Below, one piece after another: positions 190-26,751 of a stretch of DNA of 30,021 nt (its first letter is position 1; the number at the start of each line of letters is the position of its first letter). Below the pieces are notes generated by a model that was given only the letters and a program-made list of their open reading frames with translations, searched no databases and was not told where the DNA came from. Both the position numbers and the translations under genes were made by a program. This stretch comes from a virus (lineage: Duplodnaviria; Caudoviricetes), in IMG/VR virus record IMGVR_UViG_3300002307_000167, positions 1 through 30,021 of that record; one strand, written 5' to 3'.

Positions 190-214
190 TGGGGTGAATG
201 AGGAGGATCGAACT
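190..214 (-). pseudogene. 3' fragment of interrupted tRNA-His (T-loop, acceptor 3' strand, C73, CCA)
   Basis: Minus strand AG-TTCGATC-CTCCT-CATTCAC-C-CCA; the acceptor strand pairs with GTGGGTG at 1208-1214. Confidence 0.75.
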
Positions 215-247
215 TAAAATATTTTTCATATAGGCATAAATAGCAAT

Positions 248-1105
248 ATGAAAAAGTATATCCAATGTAAAATTTGCAACAAGCAAATGAAGCAAATAAC
301 CTCCCAGCACCTTAAATTTCATAATATGACTATTCCCGAATATAAAAAGTCTTTTGGGAACATATTATCAGAAGAGGTATACAGTAAGTGTAATACGGCT
401 GCTAGTAAGGGAAGACCTTTAGCTTCCGCCAAGAAACAACAACAGCGAACCGAACGAATTTTGCTAGCAATCAAAGAATACTCCTTAGAGCCAACTCGGT
501 GCAAGCAATGTGAAATAGAACTAAAATTTGAATCCAGGTATAATTCGTTTTGTTCTCAATCATGCTCTGCAAAATATTCAAATGCTAAACGATACTCCCC
601 CAAGCCTACCATAATCAGACCGCTATGTAAAAAGTGCAATAAACCCACTAAAGCTAAGTCCGGAGTTCATATAGAGTGCAGTAAGACTACATGCCAAATC
701 TGCGATAGGCAAATCTATTCAAATGCTACTAAGATGTGTCGATCTTGCTACATCAAGTCGGACCAAGCCAACGAGCAACGAGGAAGAACTTTCTCAAAGA
801 CAAGGGGGTATTATGAATCAAAATCCGGAACATTTTACTATATGTCTTCTCTTGAATTGGAATTTCTTAAATTGTGTGATCTGTATAATATTAGCGTTGG
901 AAAACCAAAACCAATGTCTTATTGGCATAACAACAAAAATCATTTGTATTTTCCTGACTTCAAAATTAATGAAACCGTTATAGAAATAAAAGGATATCTA
1001 ACAAAGGAAGACAAAATCAAAATGTCTTATTTTCCGGAAGTATTAATACTCTTCTCTAAAGATATAGCTCTATTCAAAGAAACAGGAAAAATTCCGGGTG
1101 TCTAG
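248..1105 (+). CDS. Zn-finger-rich PD-(D/E)xK free-standing (putative homing) endonuclease
   Basis: N-terminal CKIC...HLKFH finger, several CxxC and FCSQSC motifs, C-terminal YFPDF...IEIKG motif; ATAAATA just upstream of ATG. Confidence 0.75.
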   Translation: MKKYIQCKICNKQMKQITSQHLKFHNMTIPEYKKSFGNILSEEVYSKCNTAASKGRPLASAKKQQQRTERILLAIKEYSLEPTRCKQCEIELKFESRYNSFCSQSCSAKYSNAKRYSPKPTIIRPLCKKCNKPTKAKSGVHIECSKTTCQICDRQIYSNATKMCRSCYIKSDQANEQRGRTFSKTRGYYESKSGTFYYMSSLELEFLKLCDLYNISVGKPKPMSYWHNNKNHLYFPDFKINETVIEIKGYLTKEDKIKMSYFPEVLILFSKDIALFKETGKIPGV

Positions 1106-1170
1106 CGGGTAACGATCCCGCTACTCCGGCTTCACAGGCCGGCGTGTATCCATATAACACTCTAGACACC
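1097..1170 (-). tRNA. tRNA-His(GTG), G-1/C73, no encoded CCA
   Basis: G-GTGTCTA/TAGACAC-C acceptor, GTGT/ACAC D-stem, CCGGC-CTGTGAA-GCCGG anticodon arm, atypical T-loop ATCGTTA. Confidence 0.88.
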
Positions 1171-1184
1171 ATAAATTCTAAGGC

Positions 1185-1215
1185 GCCGCCGCTCTACCAC
1201 TGAGCTACACCCACC
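1185..1215 (-). pseudogene. 5' half of interrupted tRNA-His
   Basis: G-GTGGGTG-TA-GCTC-AGTGGTA-GAGC-G-GCGGC then breaks off before the anticodon loop. Confidence 0.75.
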
Positions 1216-2087: not shown

Positions 2088-2161
2088 TGGATGGGCCCCA
2101 GGGATTCGAACCCCGATTGACGGATTCAAAGTCCGCTCTCTTACCCTTAGAGGAGGGCCCA
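2088..2161 (-). tRNA. tRNA-Gln(TTG)
   Basis: TGGGCCC/GGGCCCA, GCGGA-CTTTGAA-TCCGT, TTCGAAT, CCA. Confidence 0.92.
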
Positions 2162-2165
2162 ACAA

Positions 2166-2843
2166 TCACTTACAAACTCTGCCCTTTTTCCATCCTTGTG
2201 GAATAGGAACATCGTTTTTAATCTTTTTATTTTCGGTTCCATTAGTTATCCACATCATTCCGAATTGCGAATTCCTAGAACCAGATTGTGAAACAGCATT
2301 TGCTGTTCCTATCTTCTTTTTTGTCTCGTCGCTATGAGCTTTTCCTTTGAATGTACCACCTGTAGTAGCTAGTCTTTCACGAACTGTTCGTGAAATCTCT
2401 GCCCTTCGTTTAGCAGCCCATTCTCCGTTTTCTTCCCATAACTTTCTTTGTGTATCTCTACCTCTATCAGCAGATTCTAAAGTAGCTTTCTTGACTGACA
2501 TTATATTTAATGTCTTCTCAAAGCCGTTTCTTATTTTATTAGTATTGATGTACCCAAATCCGCCCTGGCCACCCCGACACAGATTATAAGTATCTTGGCG
2601 AGAACAAAACTCTTCGGTTACGATATTCCGTTCTGCGAGGTTCATTTCTTCTTCGGTTTCAAAAATATGAAGGAATTCTTTTTTAAAGTTTTCTACTCCA
2701 TATTTCTTTTTAGCGGCACCGAGCAATTTTCCAGAACCCATATATCCATCGTCTAGATTAGTTGTTTGGTGCTTACCGACATATACTTTGCCATTAACAA
2801 GATTAGTTATTTGGTATACTGTATAGAACATAATTTTCTCCAT
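2166..2843 (-). CDS. GIY-YIG homing endonuclease (Seg-like) with NUMOD3-type motif
   Basis: YTVYQITNLVNGKVYVGKH...YMGSG; C-terminal KGKAHSDETKKKIG and WITNG; lies between two tRNA-Gln genes. Confidence 0.9.
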   Translation of the reverse strand: MEKIMFYTVYQITNLVNGKVYVGKHQTTNLDDGYMGSGKLLGAAKKKYGVENFKKEFLHIFETEEEMNLAERNIVTEEFCSRQDTYNLCRGGQGGFGYINTNKIRNGFEKTLNIMSVKKATLESADRGRDTQRKLWEENGEWAAKRRAEISRTVRERLATTGGTFKGKAHSDETKKKIGTANAVSQSGSRNSQFGMMWITNGTENKKIKNDVPIPQGWKKGRVCK

Positions 2844-2871
2844 CAGTATTTATGCCAAATAGCAAAAAGTG

Positions 2872-2944
2872 ATGCCCGACTAGGGTTCGAACCTAGAACC
2901 TACTGAGTCAGAGTCAGTTGATCTGCCAATTGATCTATCGGGCA
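2872..2944 (-). tRNA. tRNA-Gln(CTG), no encoded CCA
   Basis: TGCCCGA/TCGGGCA, GATC/GATC D-stem, ACTGA-CTCTGAC-TCAGT, CTAGG-TTCGAAC-CCTAG. Confidence 0.92.
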
Positions 2945-6460: not shown

Positions 6461-6540
6461 ATAAATAAAGATGTAGTTCGCGGTACGGGAATACCCAACT
6501 ACTCTAATGCTAACAAGGAGCACCAGCAATGACTATTTAT
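6461..6540 (+). repeat. endonuclease leader cassette, copy 1
   Basis: ATAAATA..GTAGTT-CGC-GGTA..TACC-C-AACTAC-TCTA-ATGCT..AGCAC-CAGCA-ATGACTATTTAT. Confidence 0.9.
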
Positions 6541-7676: not shown

Positions 7677-9059
7677 TTACTTGTTAGCGTTTGCCCGAAC
7701 TTCGTCAAAAGTCATGTCACGAAGAAGAACGCCATTTTCATAGACTGTGTCCAGCATACGCATATCCGATCCAACACAAACATCAGCGACCTCTTCATCA
7801 CGCATAGTAGTGAAGGTTCCATCCTTATGCTGAATCAGTTCCAGCTTACCCTTCTTGCTACGCTTGCCCTTGTCAGTGATTGGGTCCTTGAAAACATCAA
7901 CCCAGGTACCATTGACGAGTGCAGCCGAACACTTCATGGCAAACTTCTGATCGTCACGGTTTACAATCTGGAGCAATGCACCGCCCTGACCGAACACTAC
8001 ATTGTCAGCACTGTAGCCAGCAAGTGTGATAGTGTAGAGGATGCTGCGAATGCTGGCGTGATTGATACCGTCACCCTGCAACACACGAACATTGTTCAGG
8101 ACCTTGTAGCCCTTAGCATTGACGGTATGACCAAAGTACTGATCAAGAATCTTGAGACACTTGAGAACAATGTCAGCAGGATCACCCGAGTCAGGACGCA
8201 CAACAAGAGTAGCACCACTGTCAAGCACATCCTGCTTAAGCTCCGTACCCCACAGCTTGCAAGCGTTGAAGATATCGTAGCTGTCAGAAACAGCACTTAC
8301 AATGCCACCAGGCTTGCCGTTGACCTTGACCATGTTGCGGTAAGAAGCAACCTCGTTCTCACGACCCCAGCTAGTTACAGTGCTGTGTTCCATTGCAGGA
8401 ACGCTAAAGCCAGCCATGTCAGCATTGTAGTAACGACGGGCAAAAAGCAGAGCCTCAACGGTGTCGGTCCCTTGAAAGTTAACCAAGTGTGCGGCGCCAC
8501 CAATACCTGCGCTTTCCAAACTGCTAACCCCACGAGCACCGAAATCGTGAAGTTTAAAATCAATACTAGTAGGATCACCGGTCTTCTCCAGGTAGTCAAG
8601 AATCAGTTTCTTGTTCTCGTAGCTGTTGGTAGCAACAGTAGTCGGGTACCAAACTGCACGAAGCAAAGCAGTCTCAAGGAAGCTAGTCAGCCAGTAGCAG
8701 TTAGGATCAGTGTTCTCAATAGTAACGAGAACATTAAGAGTAGGGATAACAAGTCCCTCAGGGGCAGCCTTGATAATGACAGGCAGCTTACCACCGTGTT
8801 CGCGGACGATGTATTCCCATCCTTCACGATTAAAGGGTTCGCCATGTGTAGTGATGATGGCTTCGGCTTCATCAATCATGTCCATCGTGACAGGAGTAAG
8901 CATGTACTCCTTGATGAAGGCTTGAAGGCCGAAGAAAACAGTAGTATCGTACTTTCCACCGCGGCTTTCAATGTAGCTGTAGATCACTGTAGTTTTGGGA
9001 GGGTATTGTACCCACTGTGAGTACTTGTACGAATCGCTGTTCAAGATTAGGTTATGCAT
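7677..9059 (-). CDS. nadV: nicotinamide phosphoribosyltransferase (NAMPT)
   Basis: SDSYK, LHDFGARG, PAMEHS, VSDSYD, RPDSGDP, QGDG, NRDDQKFAMKCS motifs. Confidence 0.97.
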   Translation of the reverse strand: MHNLILNSDSYKYSQWVQYPPKTTVIYSYIESRGGKYDTTVFFGLQAFIKEYMLTPVTMDMIDEAEAIITTHGEPFNREGWEYIVREHGGKLPVIIKAAPEGLVIPTLNVLVTIENTDPNCYWLTSFLETALLRAVWYPTTVATNSYENKKLILDYLEKTGDPTSIDFKLHDFGARGVSSLESAGIGGAAHLVNFQGTDTVEALLFARRYYNADMAGFSVPAMEHSTVTSWGRENEVASYRNMVKVNGKPGGIVSAVSDSYDIFNACKLWGTELKQDVLDSGATLVVRPDSGDPADIVLKCLKILDQYFGHTVNAKGYKVLNNVRVLQGDGINHASIRSILYTITLAGYSADNVVFGQGGALLQIVNRDDQKFAMKCSAALVNGTWVDVFKDPITDKGKRSKKGKLELIQHKDGTFTTMRDEEVADVCVGSDMRMLDTVYENGVLLRDMTFDEVRANANK

Positions 9060-10825: not shown

Positions 10826-10893
10826 TGCTGATGTTCCAGTATAACATTAGAGTAGTTGGGAACGCCAATTCCGTGAACTACATCTTTATTTAT
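10814..10893 (-). repeat. endonuclease leader cassette, copy 2
   Basis: ATAAATA..GTAGTT-CAC-GGAA..TTCC-C-AACTAC-TCTA-ATGTT..AACAT-CAGCA-ATGAATATTTAT. Confidence 0.9.
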
Positions 10894-11178: not shown

Positions 11179-11922
11179 ATGTCAACCGAATATATTCCTT
11201 ACTGCTATCTCATAGGATGGTCCAAACTAGACACTTGGTACTACGGAGTTGAATATGCTAATAATAGTCAACGAGTAGCAAATCCTGCAAATCTCTGGAC
11301 AACTTATTTCACTTCATCAAAACATGTTAGTAACTTCATTGAAGAACACGGTGACCCTGATGTTATCAAAGTTAGAAAGCTGTTCACTACTAGAGAGAAA
11401 GCACAACTTTGGGAATGTACCGTGTTGCGTAGACTCAAAGTAAGAGAAAAAATTAACTGGCTTAATGTTAATCCTGGTGGATTTGGTTTTGCAGTTCCTG
11501 TCGGTGAACTACATCCTTGCTTCGGTAAAAAGCGATCCGAAGAATCAAAAAACAAGCAGCGAGAAACTAGAAAACAACGACACGCACAAGGTTTATATTC
11601 ATATTACAATCATACTCCTGAGCAAATAGAGAAAGTAAGACAACTTGGCAAAAACAATGCTAGACCAAAAGAACAAAGAACATACACTTGCACCAAGTGT
11701 AACACTGTTGTTGAAAAAGTTGAATATACTCACCATCCTATTAATCAAAACTATAGATGCAAACACTGCAAACCAGGGAGACCGCCTAGGCCTGTAGTTA
11801 TGTTTGGTGTTAGGTATGATGGCGAATCATATGCTGCTACTGCATTAAATATGTCAATAGACCAAATACGACACCGATTAGGCAGTGATAAATTCCCAGA
11901 TTGCAATAGATTACAAACCTAG
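11179..11922 (+). CDS. GIY-YIG-like free-standing endonuclease
   Basis: PYCYLIGW...YYGVEY...YFTSS, paralogous to 10046-10825; GKKRSEESK NUMOD-like motif; CxxC pairs; GAGG RBS and ATAAATA. Confidence 0.8.
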   Translation: MSTEYIPYCYLIGWSKLDTWYYGVEYANNSQRVANPANLWTTYFTSSKHVSNFIEEHGDPDVIKVRKLFTTREKAQLWECTVLRRLKVREKINWLNVNPGGFGFAVPVGELHPCFGKKRSEESKNKQRETRKQRHAQGLYSYYNHTPEQIEKVRQLGKNNARPKEQRTYTCTKCNTVVEKVEYTHHPINQNYRCKHCKPGRPPRPVVMFGVRYDGESYAATALNMSIDQIRHRLGSDKFPDCNRLQT

Positions 11923-12987
11923 AAAATATTGCACTATTGCAAAATGGTCATCGAACATCTGGTCTTCTCGCAACTCGCTGATAGGAATCCATTTTGCGCG
12001 GATGGCATCGTCAGCACCCTTCACCTTCGGCAACGTAACATCGTCAGCCAGCTTAAAGTGATAAGCCTTCGTGATAACACGACCAAGCGTAGAACGATAA
12101 GGATCGTCAAAAGTCTCGTGGTCACGAATGCTACCGCGCAGAACAGCTTCCGGCACCTTGATCTTCGTTTCTTCACGAAGTTCGCGGATAGCACCATCAA
12201 GCTGCTTTTCAAATTCGTTCAAGTGTCCACCGGGCAATGCCCACAGACCCTTACCTGGTTCTGCCTTACGCTTGACGAGCAGAATGTGACCACTCTGTTC
12301 AACAACTGCGTCAACAGTGGCGTGCTTTACGGGATAAGGCGACACTTCCCACTGCTTCTTGTAGTCACGAACGAAGTTAAGTTCATTAGCAAGCTGCTCG
12401 TAAGAGTCCATCTTGCGGAAGTTCATGAGGAAACTGAAAACGCTCTTAGGGCAAGCATCACTGATACGACCAGTATCAAGATAATCTTCACGAATAGCAG
12501 TAGCGTGTACATCAGCCTCAATCTCAACGTTGATGGACTTGTACTGCGGGAACAATTTGAGGTAGTAGCTAGTACCATCCTTGCTTGCACCGATCAAGCC
12601 AACCTTAGCATCATTGTATCCCGAAGCCATGAACCCATCTGGGTTGATAACTTCCAGAGTGGTATCCTTGACGATGTTCTGAACCTGCTTGACCCAAGCA
12701 GCATCGTTATAGGTCTTGTCATAGAGGGGCTTAATGATCAAGCGATTAGCGACATAGCTTGCAGGACCGAATTCCTGTTCTACTGCACCGCTGTAAGCAC
12801 CGGTGATCATCTGCTTACGTTCATCAAAGGTGAACGGGTTACGGATCGTTCGGGCTTTTCCGGCAGAACCTACGAGAACCAATACATTTCGAGATTTTTG
12901 AAGCGCGATATCAATGACGCGCTTGTGTTCCACATGAAACGGCTGGAACCGACCGACAAAGACCAGAAGGTCAAACTCTTTTTTCAT
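11911..12987 (-). CDS. nadM: bifunctional NMN adenylyltransferase / Nudix hydrolase (NadM-Nudix)
   Basis: GRFQPFHVEH, RNPFTFDER, HATAIRE; Nudix box GGHLNEFE...AIRELREET; GADDA. Confidence 0.95.
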   Translation of the reverse strand: MKKEFDLLVFVGRFQPFHVEHKRVIDIALQKSRNVLVLVGSAGKARTIRNPFTFDERKQMITGAYSGAVEQEFGPASYVANRLIIKPLYDKTYNDAAWVKQVQNIVKDTTLEVINPDGFMASGYNDAKVGLIGASKDGTSYYLKLFPQYKSINVEIEADVHATAIREDYLDTGRISDACPKSVFSFLMNFRKMDSYEQLANELNFVRDYKKQWEVSPYPVKHATVDAVVEQSGHILLVKRKAEPGKGLWALPGGHLNEFEKQLDGAIRELREETKIKVPEAVLRGSIRDHETFDDPYRSTLGRVITKAYHFKLADDVTLPKVKGADDAIRAKWIPISELREDQMFDDHFAIVQYFLGL

Positions 12988-13098: not shown

Positions 13099-13176
13099 AT
13101 AAATAAGTGTGAGTCACGGAATCCCCATTCCCACTCACTCTAACGCTTTCGAGGAGCATCAGCAATGACTATTTAT
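13099..13176 (+). repeat. endonuclease leader cassette, copy 3
   Basis: ATAAATA..GTGAGT-CAC-GGAA..TTCC-C-ACTCAC-TCTA-ACGCT..AGCAT-CAGCA-ATGACTATTTAT. Confidence 0.88.
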
Positions 13177-14822: not shown

Positions 14823-16040
14823 TTACCCTTTGACACAAATCACCTGCTTAAGCGCATGGACGATATCAACAAGATCAGCCTGCGCAGCCATAACTGCATC
14901 AATGTCCTTGTATGCAAGAGGAGTTTCGTCAATGACTTCTTTATCCTTCCTGCATTCAACGCCCTCGGTTGCAGCGATATGGTCCTTTAGGTTGAACCTG
15001 CGCTTTGCTTCTGCTCGGCTCATTGCACGGCCTGCACCATGCGAACAAGAGTAAAACGATTCACGATTACCCTTGCCGCGCACAATATAAGAACGAGCGC
15101 CCATAGAACCTGGAATGATTCCAAGCTCATTCAACCTAGCAGAAACCGCACCCTTTCTCGTCACTAGAATGTTATCACCGAAGTGCTTTTCACGCGACAC
15201 GTAGTTGTGATGACAGTTAACTGCCATCATTTCACTAAAGAAAGGCTTCTTGATATGCTGCTTGATGGCGTTCAAAGTAGCCTTCATCATAACTTCGCGG
15301 TTGCTGCGTGCGTATGACTGGGCCCATTCGACTGCCTGCAAATAATCCTTGAAATGATCAGTCCCTTCGGGAATGTAAGCAAGATCAATGTCAGGAATGT
15401 TGATGAACCACTTGCGCATATCTTCTTTAGCAAGTTCAATGAAGTAAGAACCAATACGGTTACCTACACCACGCGAACCACTGTGAAGCATTACCCACAC
15501 ATACCCTTCTTCGTCAAGGCAAATTTCAATAAAGTGGTTACCCGTACCAAGAGAACCCATGTGGTTAATTGCACGATCAGCGGCCCGACCAATCTTAGGA
15601 TGCTTCTCAACAATCTTATCAAGCTCTTCCTTATGCTTAGCAAAGAAATCAACTGCATCACCGCTCGGATCACCCCATGCACCACGGTCGTTTGCTCCAC
15701 CATTATCAGTGCGTCCATGAGGAACAAGTGCTTCAATTGAAGAACGAATTCCGAACAGATTATCCGGCAAATCGTCTGCTGTAAGATTAGTGCGATGTGC
15801 CATCATACCGCACCCGATATCAACGCCGACAGCAGCCGGGATGATTGCGCCCTTAGTAGGAATAACTGAACCAACAGTTGCACCCATTCCCCAGTGAACG
15901 TCAGGCATGATTGCCACATGCTTGTGAATGAAGGGCATTGAAGCGATGTTGTCGAGCTGGTTACGGGCTTCCTGTTCAACCTGAACGCCGTCTACCCAAG
16001 CCTTAATAAGGCCGCCCTTGTTTCCCTTAATCACTTGCAT
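14823..16040 (-). CDS. rtcB: RtcB RNA ligase (3'-phosphate/5'-OH)
   Basis: MPDVH, GVDIGCG, GSLGTGNHFIE, LHSGSRG, HHN, IPGSMG, SCSHGAGR, DETP.AYK; start reassigned to MQVIKG (AAGGA RBS). Confidence 0.97.
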   Translation of the reverse strand: MQVIKGNKGGLIKAWVDGVQVEQEARNQLDNIASMPFIHKHVAIMPDVHWGMGATVGSVIPTKGAIIPAAVGVDIGCGMMAHRTNLTADDLPDNLFGIRSSIEALVPHGRTDNGGANDRGAWGDPSGDAVDFFAKHKEELDKIVEKHPKIGRAADRAINHMGSLGTGNHFIEICLDEEGYVWVMLHSGSRGVGNRIGSYFIELAKEDMRKWFINIPDIDLAYIPEGTDHFKDYLQAVEWAQSYARSNREVMMKATLNAIKQHIKKPFFSEMMAVNCHHNYVSREKHFGDNILVTRKGAVSARLNELGIIPGSMGARSYIVRGKGNRESFYSCSHGAGRAMSRAEAKRRFNLKDHIAATEGVECRKDKEVIDETPLAYKDIDAVMAAQADLVDIVHALKQVICVKG

Positions 16041-16104
16041 ATCTAATTCCTTTTCCTTATAACATAGAATGCTATATATCTTTTTGGAACAGATGTCAAC
16101 CTTT

Positions 16105-16386
16105 TTATTCGCCGTGATACTGCCAAAGTACCGCATTGCAATATGCGTGAACGGTTCCTAATGTCATCCCGGTGTCATGTGAATGATGCAGATGATGGGG
16201 GTGTTGTAAGAAGTTAGGTGGAAACAAATCCCAATCTATCTTCTTACTGCGGATACCTGCAGGTGGAGCCTTCATCAACGGACTCTTGCAATAATAACAA
16301 ACTCCACCTTGTTGCTTAATATATTCCTCCCTAACTAACTTGCGCTGTGTAGGAGGAGTCTTAGCGTAATTAACTGGCAGTTTCAC
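16105..16386 (-). CDS. endonuclease VII-like His-Me finger protein
   Basis: QQGGVCYYC...HLHHSHDTG...VHAYCN. Confidence 0.7.
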   Translation of the reverse strand: MKLPVNYAKTPPTQRKLVREEYIKQQGGVCYYCKSPLMKAPPAGIRSKKIDWDLFPPNFLQHPHHLHHSHDTGMTLGTVHAYCNAVLWQYHGE

Positions 16387-21747: not shown

Positions 21748-21813
21748 AGCTGTAACTCCGATATAGTTATAGAGTAGTTGGGCTTGCCGTCCGCGAACTA
21801 CACTTCTATTTAT
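21736..21813 (-). repeat. endonuclease leader cassette, copy 4
   Basis: ATAAATA..GTAGTT-CGC-GG..CC-C-AACTAC-TCTA-TAACT..AGTTA-CAGCT-ATGTGTATTTAT. Confidence 0.88.
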
Positions 21814-22232: not shown

Positions 22233-22307
22233 TGGCGCGCTTGGTGGGATTCGAACCCACTATCTCGGGTATTAGAAGCCCTTGCAATACCATTTAGCCT
22301 CAAGCGC
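22233..22307 (-). tRNA. degenerate tRNA, Arg(TCT)-like body, CTA in canonical anticodon register
   Basis: GCGCTTG/CAAGCGC-G-CCA and perfect T-arm; anticodon arm AGGGC-TTCTAAT-ACCCG with two mismatches. Confidence 0.7.
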
Positions 22308-26671: not shown

Positions 26672-26751
26672 ATAAATAAAAGTGTAGTTCGCGGAAGTGG
26701 GATTCCCAACTACTCTAATACTGATTCAGAGTATCAGCAATGACTATTTAT
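26672..26751 (+). repeat. endonuclease leader cassette, copy 5
   Basis: ATAAATA..GTAGTT-CGC-GGAA..TTCC-C-AACTAC-TCTA-ATACT..AGTAT-CAGCA-ATGACTATTTAT. Confidence 0.9.

Follow-up and report, generated by a model that had tools for sequence, protein, structure and literature searches.

A tRNA-His gene of a large phage has been split by an insert together with the deletion of its anticodon arm, and this is a real feature, the states before and after the event both having been observed (the former in related alleles). The gene lies in a window of 30,021 nucleotides (the whole stretch of DNA analysed here), a 30-kb part of the phage genome; one contig with the same protein cluster reaches 340 kb. 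The minus strand carries a tRNA array in the order Gln, Gln, Thr, Arg, Arg, Trp, Trp, Lys and His. After tRNA-Lys, the locus consists of a 30-nt 5' remnant of the resident tRNA-His (1186-1215, minus strand; G-1 to G30, including the acceptor 5' strand, the D arm and 4 nt of the anticodon stem), a 15-nt left-edge spacer of the insert (1171-1185, minus strand; unrelated bases that are missing in empty alleles), a replacement tRNA-His(GTG) gene (1097-1170, minus strand), an opposite-strand ORF for a predicted endonuclease of 285 aa (248-1105, plus strand; stop codon TAG at 1103-1105), 33 bases, and a 25-nt 3' remnant of the resident gene (190-214, minus strand; A52 to CCA, including the T-loop, the acceptor 3' strand, C73 and CCA). 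Based on the junctions found in two other data sets (X2 and X6, see below), the whole cassette comprises 971 bp (215-1185) and replaces 21 nt, corresponding to tRNA positions 31-51. The remnants total 30 + 25 of 76 nt and the anticodon is absent; the best match of the lost 21 nt within the whole window has 7 mismatches. An earlier note made from the sequence had placed the 3' part at 214-190, the missing stretch (with the anticodon loop) at about 20 nt and the intervening DNA at about 970 bp. The 3' coordinates hold, and comparison with an intact locus (L002) sets the loss at exactly 21 nt and the insert at 971 bp (1185-215). The 5' half was given as 1215-1185; its start is correct, and its end is position 1186, since 1185 already belongs to the insert.

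A scan with the 25 bases at the 5' end of the resident gene gave three viral loci (L001, L002 and L003); L002 and L003 are intact tRNA-His genes and L001 was called Trp. L002 has a similarly ordered array with an intact 76-nt tRNA-His(GTG) at 739-814, with which the 5' remnant is identical at 30/30 bases (L002:739-768) and the 3' remnant at 23/25 (L002:790-814). Moreover, contigs from two other studies (X2 and X6) join position 214 to position 1186 with 21 bases between, equal to those of L002. Because L002, X2 and X6 hold the same 21 bases unbroken, with the anticodon GTG, the 971 bp replaced tRNA positions 31-51. The intact allele that the earlier note suggested looking for in related phages thus exists, and its anticodon is that of tRNA-His; both fragments come from this one gene, and an origin from different tRNA genes is not borne out. 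In the empty contig of X2, similarity continues through tRNA-Lys (1186-1340; 16 differences and 3 gaps). Both empty contigs diverge from the window past position 187, the sides of the joint are shorter than 30 nt, and three acceptor bases differ in X6; therefore, X2 and X6 represent related alleles and not the exact pre-insertion state. An exact pattern search with the 3' remnant gave no matches, and a looser pattern gave one, L027, an unrelated intact tRNA-His. Record 14 of X6 holds a third type of tRNA-His allele, with a resident-type body and an acceptor 5' strand that begins like the new tRNA; its acceptor strands would mispair as aligned, and it may be a chimera. The 5' ends of sequences in X3 and X4 are similar to this third type.

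The filled allele was also observed outside the window record. A contig in X1, probably the window's own sample, is identical to the window across 130-1308, which excludes a misassembly of the window's contig as the source of the layout. X2 holds pieces of the filled allele as well (189-596, 587-744 and 746-1022; 17 differences in 843 bases), and the cassette therefore occurs in a second study; these pieces reach only 26 bases past the right junction and leave the left junction uncovered. Among the eight runs examined (X1-X6, X8 and X10), the empty joint was seen in two (X2 and X6) and the filled allele in two (X1 and X2); neither was clear in X3, X4, X5, X8 or X10.

The gene inside the insert has the hallmarks of a complete tRNA-His. 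It was called as tRNA-His(GTG) by ARAGORN at 1096-1169 and scored 44 bits with Rfam; it has the G-1:C73 pair (G-1 at 1170 and C73 at 1097), a 7-bp acceptor stem, a GTG anticodon and a cloverleaf fold (fold z -3.4). The longest word that it has in common with the resident gene is 5 nt, in agreement with the earlier description of a complete, divergent tRNA-His(GTG). It also shows several oddities, including G8, a non-canonical ATCGTTA T-loop and an A37/A38 loop, and CCA is not encoded (C73 is followed by CGG). A free-standing, CCA-coding tRNA-His of the replacement type was detected in L025 (61/75 identical; four compensatory pairs and no broken ones), and in two near-identical contigs (L025 and L026) this gene stands after tRNA-Lys. 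A looser pattern gave five further loci, none of which was called His. Because of these free-standing copies, the compensatory pairs and the words of at most 5 nt in common with the resident gene, the replacement tRNA is taken as an imported isoacceptor whose structure is under selection, with putative maturation and charging. As a separate observation, pairing is possible between left-junction bases and the six bases at the start of the new tRNA (1156-1188, minus strand), and between the old 5' strand and the new tRNA 3' end; this alternative 120-nt fold (z -2.1) could compete with maturation.

The endonuclease has a ROS/MUCR-like C2H2 N-terminus, modules with Cys pairs, and a C-terminal PD-(D/E)xK domain resembling T7 endonuclease I. 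Matches in Pfam and PHROGs were weak (ROS/MUCR for the N-terminus; phage endonuclease I and endonuclease PHROGs for the C-terminus), and the score for the T7 endonuclease I family of Pfam (PF05367) was 15.3 bits, below the gathering threshold of 29.1; several relatives carry this family. A profile of ten homologues (A1) matched T7 endonuclease I (PDB 1m0d) with an E value of 2.4e-9, and E203, D237, E246 and K248 are invariant in 35 sequences, which bears out the earlier assignment to the PD-(D/E)xK class. Neither Pfam nor PHROGs matched a GIY-YIG domain in this nuclease or a recombinase family in the cassette's one long ORF. The AF2 model is confident locally and not globally (pLDDT 89, pTM 0.50), as would be expected for small modules on a string. 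Matches in the ESM Atlas were to viral clusters only, some of which share Phage_endo_I, TnsA-like or NUMOD3 domains, and serve as a lead only. With regard to the features of free-standing homing endonucleases, the catalytic residues of the ORF are intact, the ORF stands alone outside any intron or intein (Rfam), and it is missing from the cognate locus of relatives (L002, X2 and X6, which are related and not identical phages). A nuclease gene of the T4 Seg/Mob type lies between intact genes, whereas this one lies inside a broken tRNA gene.

A predicted late promoter combined with a hairpin that hides the start codon, which is typical of free-standing homing endonucleases and not a defining feature of them, was also found. 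The hairpin (222-255, plus strand) covers the nuclease ATG, with a fold z of -4.5 and none of 200 shuffles as stable, and its loop is the late-promoter-like motif ATAAATA (236-242). The T4 late promoter consensus is TATAAATA. A transcript starting at this motif would be nearly leaderless. The motif occurs at most 80 nt upstream of 8/8 homing endonuclease gene (HEG)-like ORFs of the window, 6 of them labelled by eye, compared to 4/25 other ORFs. A promoter-in-hairpin arrangement is described for T4 homing endonucleases in the accessible text of PMC2988022, and the cassette nuclease resembles them in its predicted late promoter inside a hairpin at the start. Besides, a leader of 66-68 nt was noticed in five HEG-like ORFs of the window (6461-6528, plus; 10826-10893, minus; 13099-13164, plus; 21748-21813, minus; 26672-26739, plus), consisting of ATAAATA, a hairpin of the GTAGTT/AACTAC type, CTCTA and a second hairpin reaching the ATG. 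In four of these five ORFs, ATAAATA also occurs on the opposite strand across the first codons. The leader seems to be a portable regulatory unit common to HNH-like and GIY-YIG-like genes (families assigned by eye).

The nuclease stop codon (1103-1105) overlaps the 3' end of the new tRNA in antisense, as noted before; the ORF covers tRNA positions 65-73, and its last four codons and the stop are the antisense of positions 65-76. Further examination of homologues with at least 60% identity (P0002, P0003, P0004 and P0017) revealed that the C-terminal peptide IPGV, the antisense of the tRNA acceptor end, is kept in 4/4. In P0017 the stop is missing, and 20 more residues end in the register of the window's next stop. 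When back-translated, this tail gives a cloverleaf that keeps the register and has GNG as its anticodon (score 18.6, above all 1500 shuffles; p 0.0007). All eight typical controls pass this test, which uses tRNA invariants, and the window's own atypical tRNA gave p 0.06, so the test misses atypical tRNAs. An earlier version based on pairing only was weak (p 0.31 for the positive control, 0.018 for P0017 and 0.04 for P0018). The anticodon arm of P0017 matches the resident type at 12/13 informative bases, compared to 9/13 for the new type, which counts against the simple form of the reading in which the resident gene is cut and the replacement is resistant.

In the wider family, an antisense T-arm signature was found in 11/181 C-terminal tails and in 0/1055 internal segments, and whole-cloverleaf scores in 6/181 tails (several isotypes) compared to 1/178 controls. 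The 181 relatives are the best 150 of 5822 representatives (E <=0.001, many probably sharing domains only) plus earlier matches, with four redundant ones excluded. Because of these T-arm signatures and cloverleaves, running in antisense into a tRNA 3' end appears to be a habit of the nuclease family, with the His link belonging to the close subgroup. The proposal that nuclease homologues travel with tRNA-His is thus indirectly supported for the close homologues, whose C-terminal peptides keep the overlap, and does not extend to the wider family, whose tails correspond to other tRNA types. DNA encoding the close homologues was found neither in viral contigs (protein search; degenerate motif) nor in genome contigs, and metagenome contigs yielded the window's own contig only. 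Among the matches listed for distant homologues, which cover 4/64 parts of the viral contigs, 18/20 loci have no nearby tRNA. In three cultured or finished phages, relatives were located in tRNA clusters, where inspection by eye showed no layout with a split gene and a spare. Two distant loci may be described here. The N-terminal arm (aa 50-138) recurs at 41% in gp465, an HNH gene of Agrobacterium phage Atu_ph07 (L035:1795-2673). This gene faces tRNA-Phe in convergent orientation, with 3 nt between it and the CCA of that tRNA; on the other side of gp465 lies an unannotated tRNA-like gene with an insert of about 35 nt in the anticodon loop. In Prevotella phage Lak-B1 (L033), a distant homologue with in-frame TAG codons lies between tRNA-Glu and tRNA-Leu; recoding is known in Lak phages, with which these codons are consistent.

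We consider that the cassette is probably a free-standing homing endonuclease which would cut the unbroken tRNA-His gene of co-infecting sister phages and be copied into it together with its spare tRNA. Because related phages keep the gene whole, it is likely a selfish element that cuts the gene and brings a spare. According to this mechanism, the nuclease gene of a donor phage would have converged on a tRNA-His gene and overlapped its 3' end. After a cut at or close to the resident anticodon arm, repair from the donor segment may have led to the loss of 21 nt. Thereafter, the remnants and their flanks would supply homology for ordinary homing, and the split would destroy the target site. The spare tRNA would be transcribed with the array and matured by RNase P and a CCA-adding enzyme, which would make the insertion nearly cost-free. 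Through the antisense overlap, the nuclease gene would share its end with a tRNA under selection, which would make the two difficult to part, and the late promoter in the hairpin loop over the ATG would restrict expression to late infection. Here, cleavage, resistance, homing and tRNA function of the cassette are what we infer. The strongest argument for homing, which comes from comparing the two genes, is that the broken gene and the cargo are the same isoacceptor with almost no sequence in common; because they have only words of at most 5 nt in common, simple homologous exchange does not explain the site. The homing reading is further supported by the T7-endonuclease-I-like domain, the invariant catalytic residues, the kept overlap, the promoter-in-hairpin layout and the empty alleles. 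It is weakened by the anticodon arm of P0017, the tRNA-free loci among the listed distant ones, the finished phages without a split, and the lack of CCA, G8 and odd T-loop of the spare, as well as by a neighbouring GIY-YIG nuclease that could have made the cut. As a whole, the interpretation of the earlier note, a selfish element that destroys the resident tRNA-His and supplies a cleavage-resistant isoacceptor, is partly supported.

The main rival, to which we give a smaller but appreciable chance, holds that the enzyme is a homing endonuclease of tRNA arrays with its target elsewhere, or at a motif common to many tRNA genes. The His split would then record one illegitimate capture event, for which the GIY-YIG enzyme may have made the break, and would have survived because the captured segment by chance carried a His tRNA. 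The many tRNA types traversed by the family tails, the resident-like anticodon arm of the P0017 tRNA and the GIY-YIG ORF in the same array (2166-2843) fit this scenario, as do the T4 free-standing enzymes that cut hundreds to thousands of bases from their own gene (available text of PMC2988022) and the general T-arm motif recognised by SegB (PMC2330249, accessible portion). However, it is unlikely without His-directed cutting that the segment landed in the single gene of its own isoacceptor, with only 5 nt in common, and the close homologues all appear to be tied to a His-type acceptor end. It is improbable that the tRNA is the selected part, i.e., that an unusual His isoacceptor evades an anticodon nuclease of the host or fits the synthetase of the host, with the nuclease gene as a hitchhiker. 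The new type does stand alone in other phages (L025/L026) with compensatory pairs, and phage tRNAs counter host defences that cut tRNAs (PMC13096335, as far as its text is available), but gaining a tRNA needs no destruction of the resident gene, and the nuclease retains its catalytic residues, its own promoter-like motif and the hairpin.

Two further explanations are scarcely credible. One is that the insert is an intron, or that the halves are joined at the RNA level to restore the resident tRNA, for which the break at the anticodon arm and an RtcB homologue in the window (14823-16136) might speak. The insert nevertheless holds a complete second tRNA-His, and repair by splicing is ruled out despite RtcB because the lost 21-mer, including the anticodon, is absent from the window and Rfam finds no intron, either at the gathering threshold or at E <=1. 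A group I or group II tRNA intron was rejected, as neither a ribozyme core (Rfam) nor complete exons are present and 21 nt are missing, and so was an archaeal-type split tRNA, whose halves would have to make a whole tRNA (here 30 + 25 of 76 nt). An Rfam match to YrlA (E 0.17) was dismissed as tRNA-like overlap. The other explanation, in which an integrative element used an att site within the tRNA gene and rebuilt the gene on entry, has a very small chance of being correct: tRNA genes are common integration sites (accessible text of PMC4390854), but the cassette's long ORF lacks a recombinase family match, there is no duplicated att core, 21 nt were deleted, and the spare and resident genes have a common word of only 5 nt. 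The junctions largely refute this reading.

Returning to the homing reading, the cassette can be compared with several known systems. SegB of T4/T6 is a free-standing GIY-YIG homing endonuclease of the tRNA cluster, with tRNA genes as its homing targets (PMC2330249 and PMC13096335, in their accessible parts). Like SegB, the cassette enzyme is a free-standing nuclease in a phage tRNA array, with a late promoter and an RBS-hiding hairpin (predicted here); by cutting a related phage's tRNA genes, SegB spreads along with the tRNAs next to it, and the same is proposed for the cassette by analogy. Unlike SegB, which belongs to the GIY-YIG class, lies between intact tRNA genes and recognises a general motif, the cassette nuclease resembles T7 endonuclease I, and its gene lies within the remains of a tRNA gene, runs opposite to the array, and overlaps a complete substitute for the lost isoacceptor. 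The closest rescue precedent comes from mitochondrial homing endonucleases of fungi, which supply their host gene with a new 3' end, as in Allomyces atp6, Ophiostoma rps3 and Phlebia atp6/cox2 (available text of PMC4019555). In both cases, part of the host gene is displaced by an insertion that brings replacement sequence with it. The fungal replacement is a homologous C-terminal fragment fused to the resident 5' part (PMC4019555, same portion), while the cassette carries a whole, independently folded and barely homologous gene, and both resident halves are abandoned.

With T7 endonuclease I (PDB 1m0d and others), the nuclease has in common an alignable catalytic domain in which E...PDF...ExK is kept; T7 endonuclease I is a small junction resolvase, and the cassette protein has about 190 further residues, predicted to form Cys/His arms that bind metal and DNA. 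I-Ssp6803I is a PD-(D/E)xK homing endonuclease of a tRNA group I intron, and the cassette likewise has a PD-(D/E)xK nuclease within a tRNA gene at the anticodon arm. In contrast to tRNA group I introns, it has no intron core and its exons are incomplete, so rescue would come from the spare gene and not from splicing. The engineered home-and-rescue (HomeR) drive offers an analogy, in that it homes into a needed gene and carries the rescue (PMC7968924); HomeR is synthetic and Cas9-based, whereas the activity of the cassette is putative. Phage nucleases that mobilise neighbouring cargo genes are treated in PMC10448857, and disrupted tRNAs are covered in PMC4390854, the available text of which does not describe the type with a split gene plus a spare. 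In the main texts of the openly readable literature, no description was found of a nuclease cassette that interrupts a tRNA gene while bringing a complete substitute for it.

Several other features of the window were observed. In 2088-2944 (minus strand), the GIY-YIG nuclease gene (2166-2843) lies between a tRNA-Gln(CTG) without CCA and a tRNA-Gln(TTG) that differs from its L002 counterpart; in L002, 51 nt without an ORF separate the two Gln genes. The region in the window may be a second nuclease-plus-tRNA swap. On the minus strand there are also an atypical tRNA-like sequence (28-126; not called by ARAGORN) that has CCA, a TTTGAAA loop and an extended 5' part, a 96-nt Arg(ACG) called only at a lowered threshold (1814-1909), a tRNA with a CTA anticodon, amber suppressor-like and labelled Pyl by ARAGORN (22233-22307), an RtcB RNA ligase, an RNA repair gene (14823-16136), and two NAD salvage genes that by eye are NAMPT-like (7677-9059) and NadM-Nudix-like (11911-12987).

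Homing endonucleases do not normally kill the gene they target, since they reside in an intron or intein, or lie next to that gene. The cassette would represent a third way, in which the gene is broken and a whole unrelated spare is carried along. This case contributes a nuclease resembling T7 endonuclease I, an antisense overlap between convergent genes, and evidence for such overlaps elsewhere in the family. The scar points to a 21-nt candidate cut zone whose unbroken state is in hand, and the finding also directs attention to uncharacterised long-site nucleases, a family numbering in the thousands (5822 representatives, E <=0.001; many of them probably share domains only). It also offers a selfish-element explanation for phage arrays that swap divergent isoacceptors and hold tRNA fragments. 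More tentatively, and with the balance somewhat against so broad a claim, this may be a natural cleave-and-rescue gene drive, run by T7-endonuclease-I-like phage nucleases, a large family not yet described, with genes locked in antisense to tRNA 3' ends. Each would cut the matching isoacceptor gene of rivals and replace it with an immune version, and much of the tRNA allele turnover in jumbo phages would then be driven by homing nucleases and not solely by codon demand or host defence.
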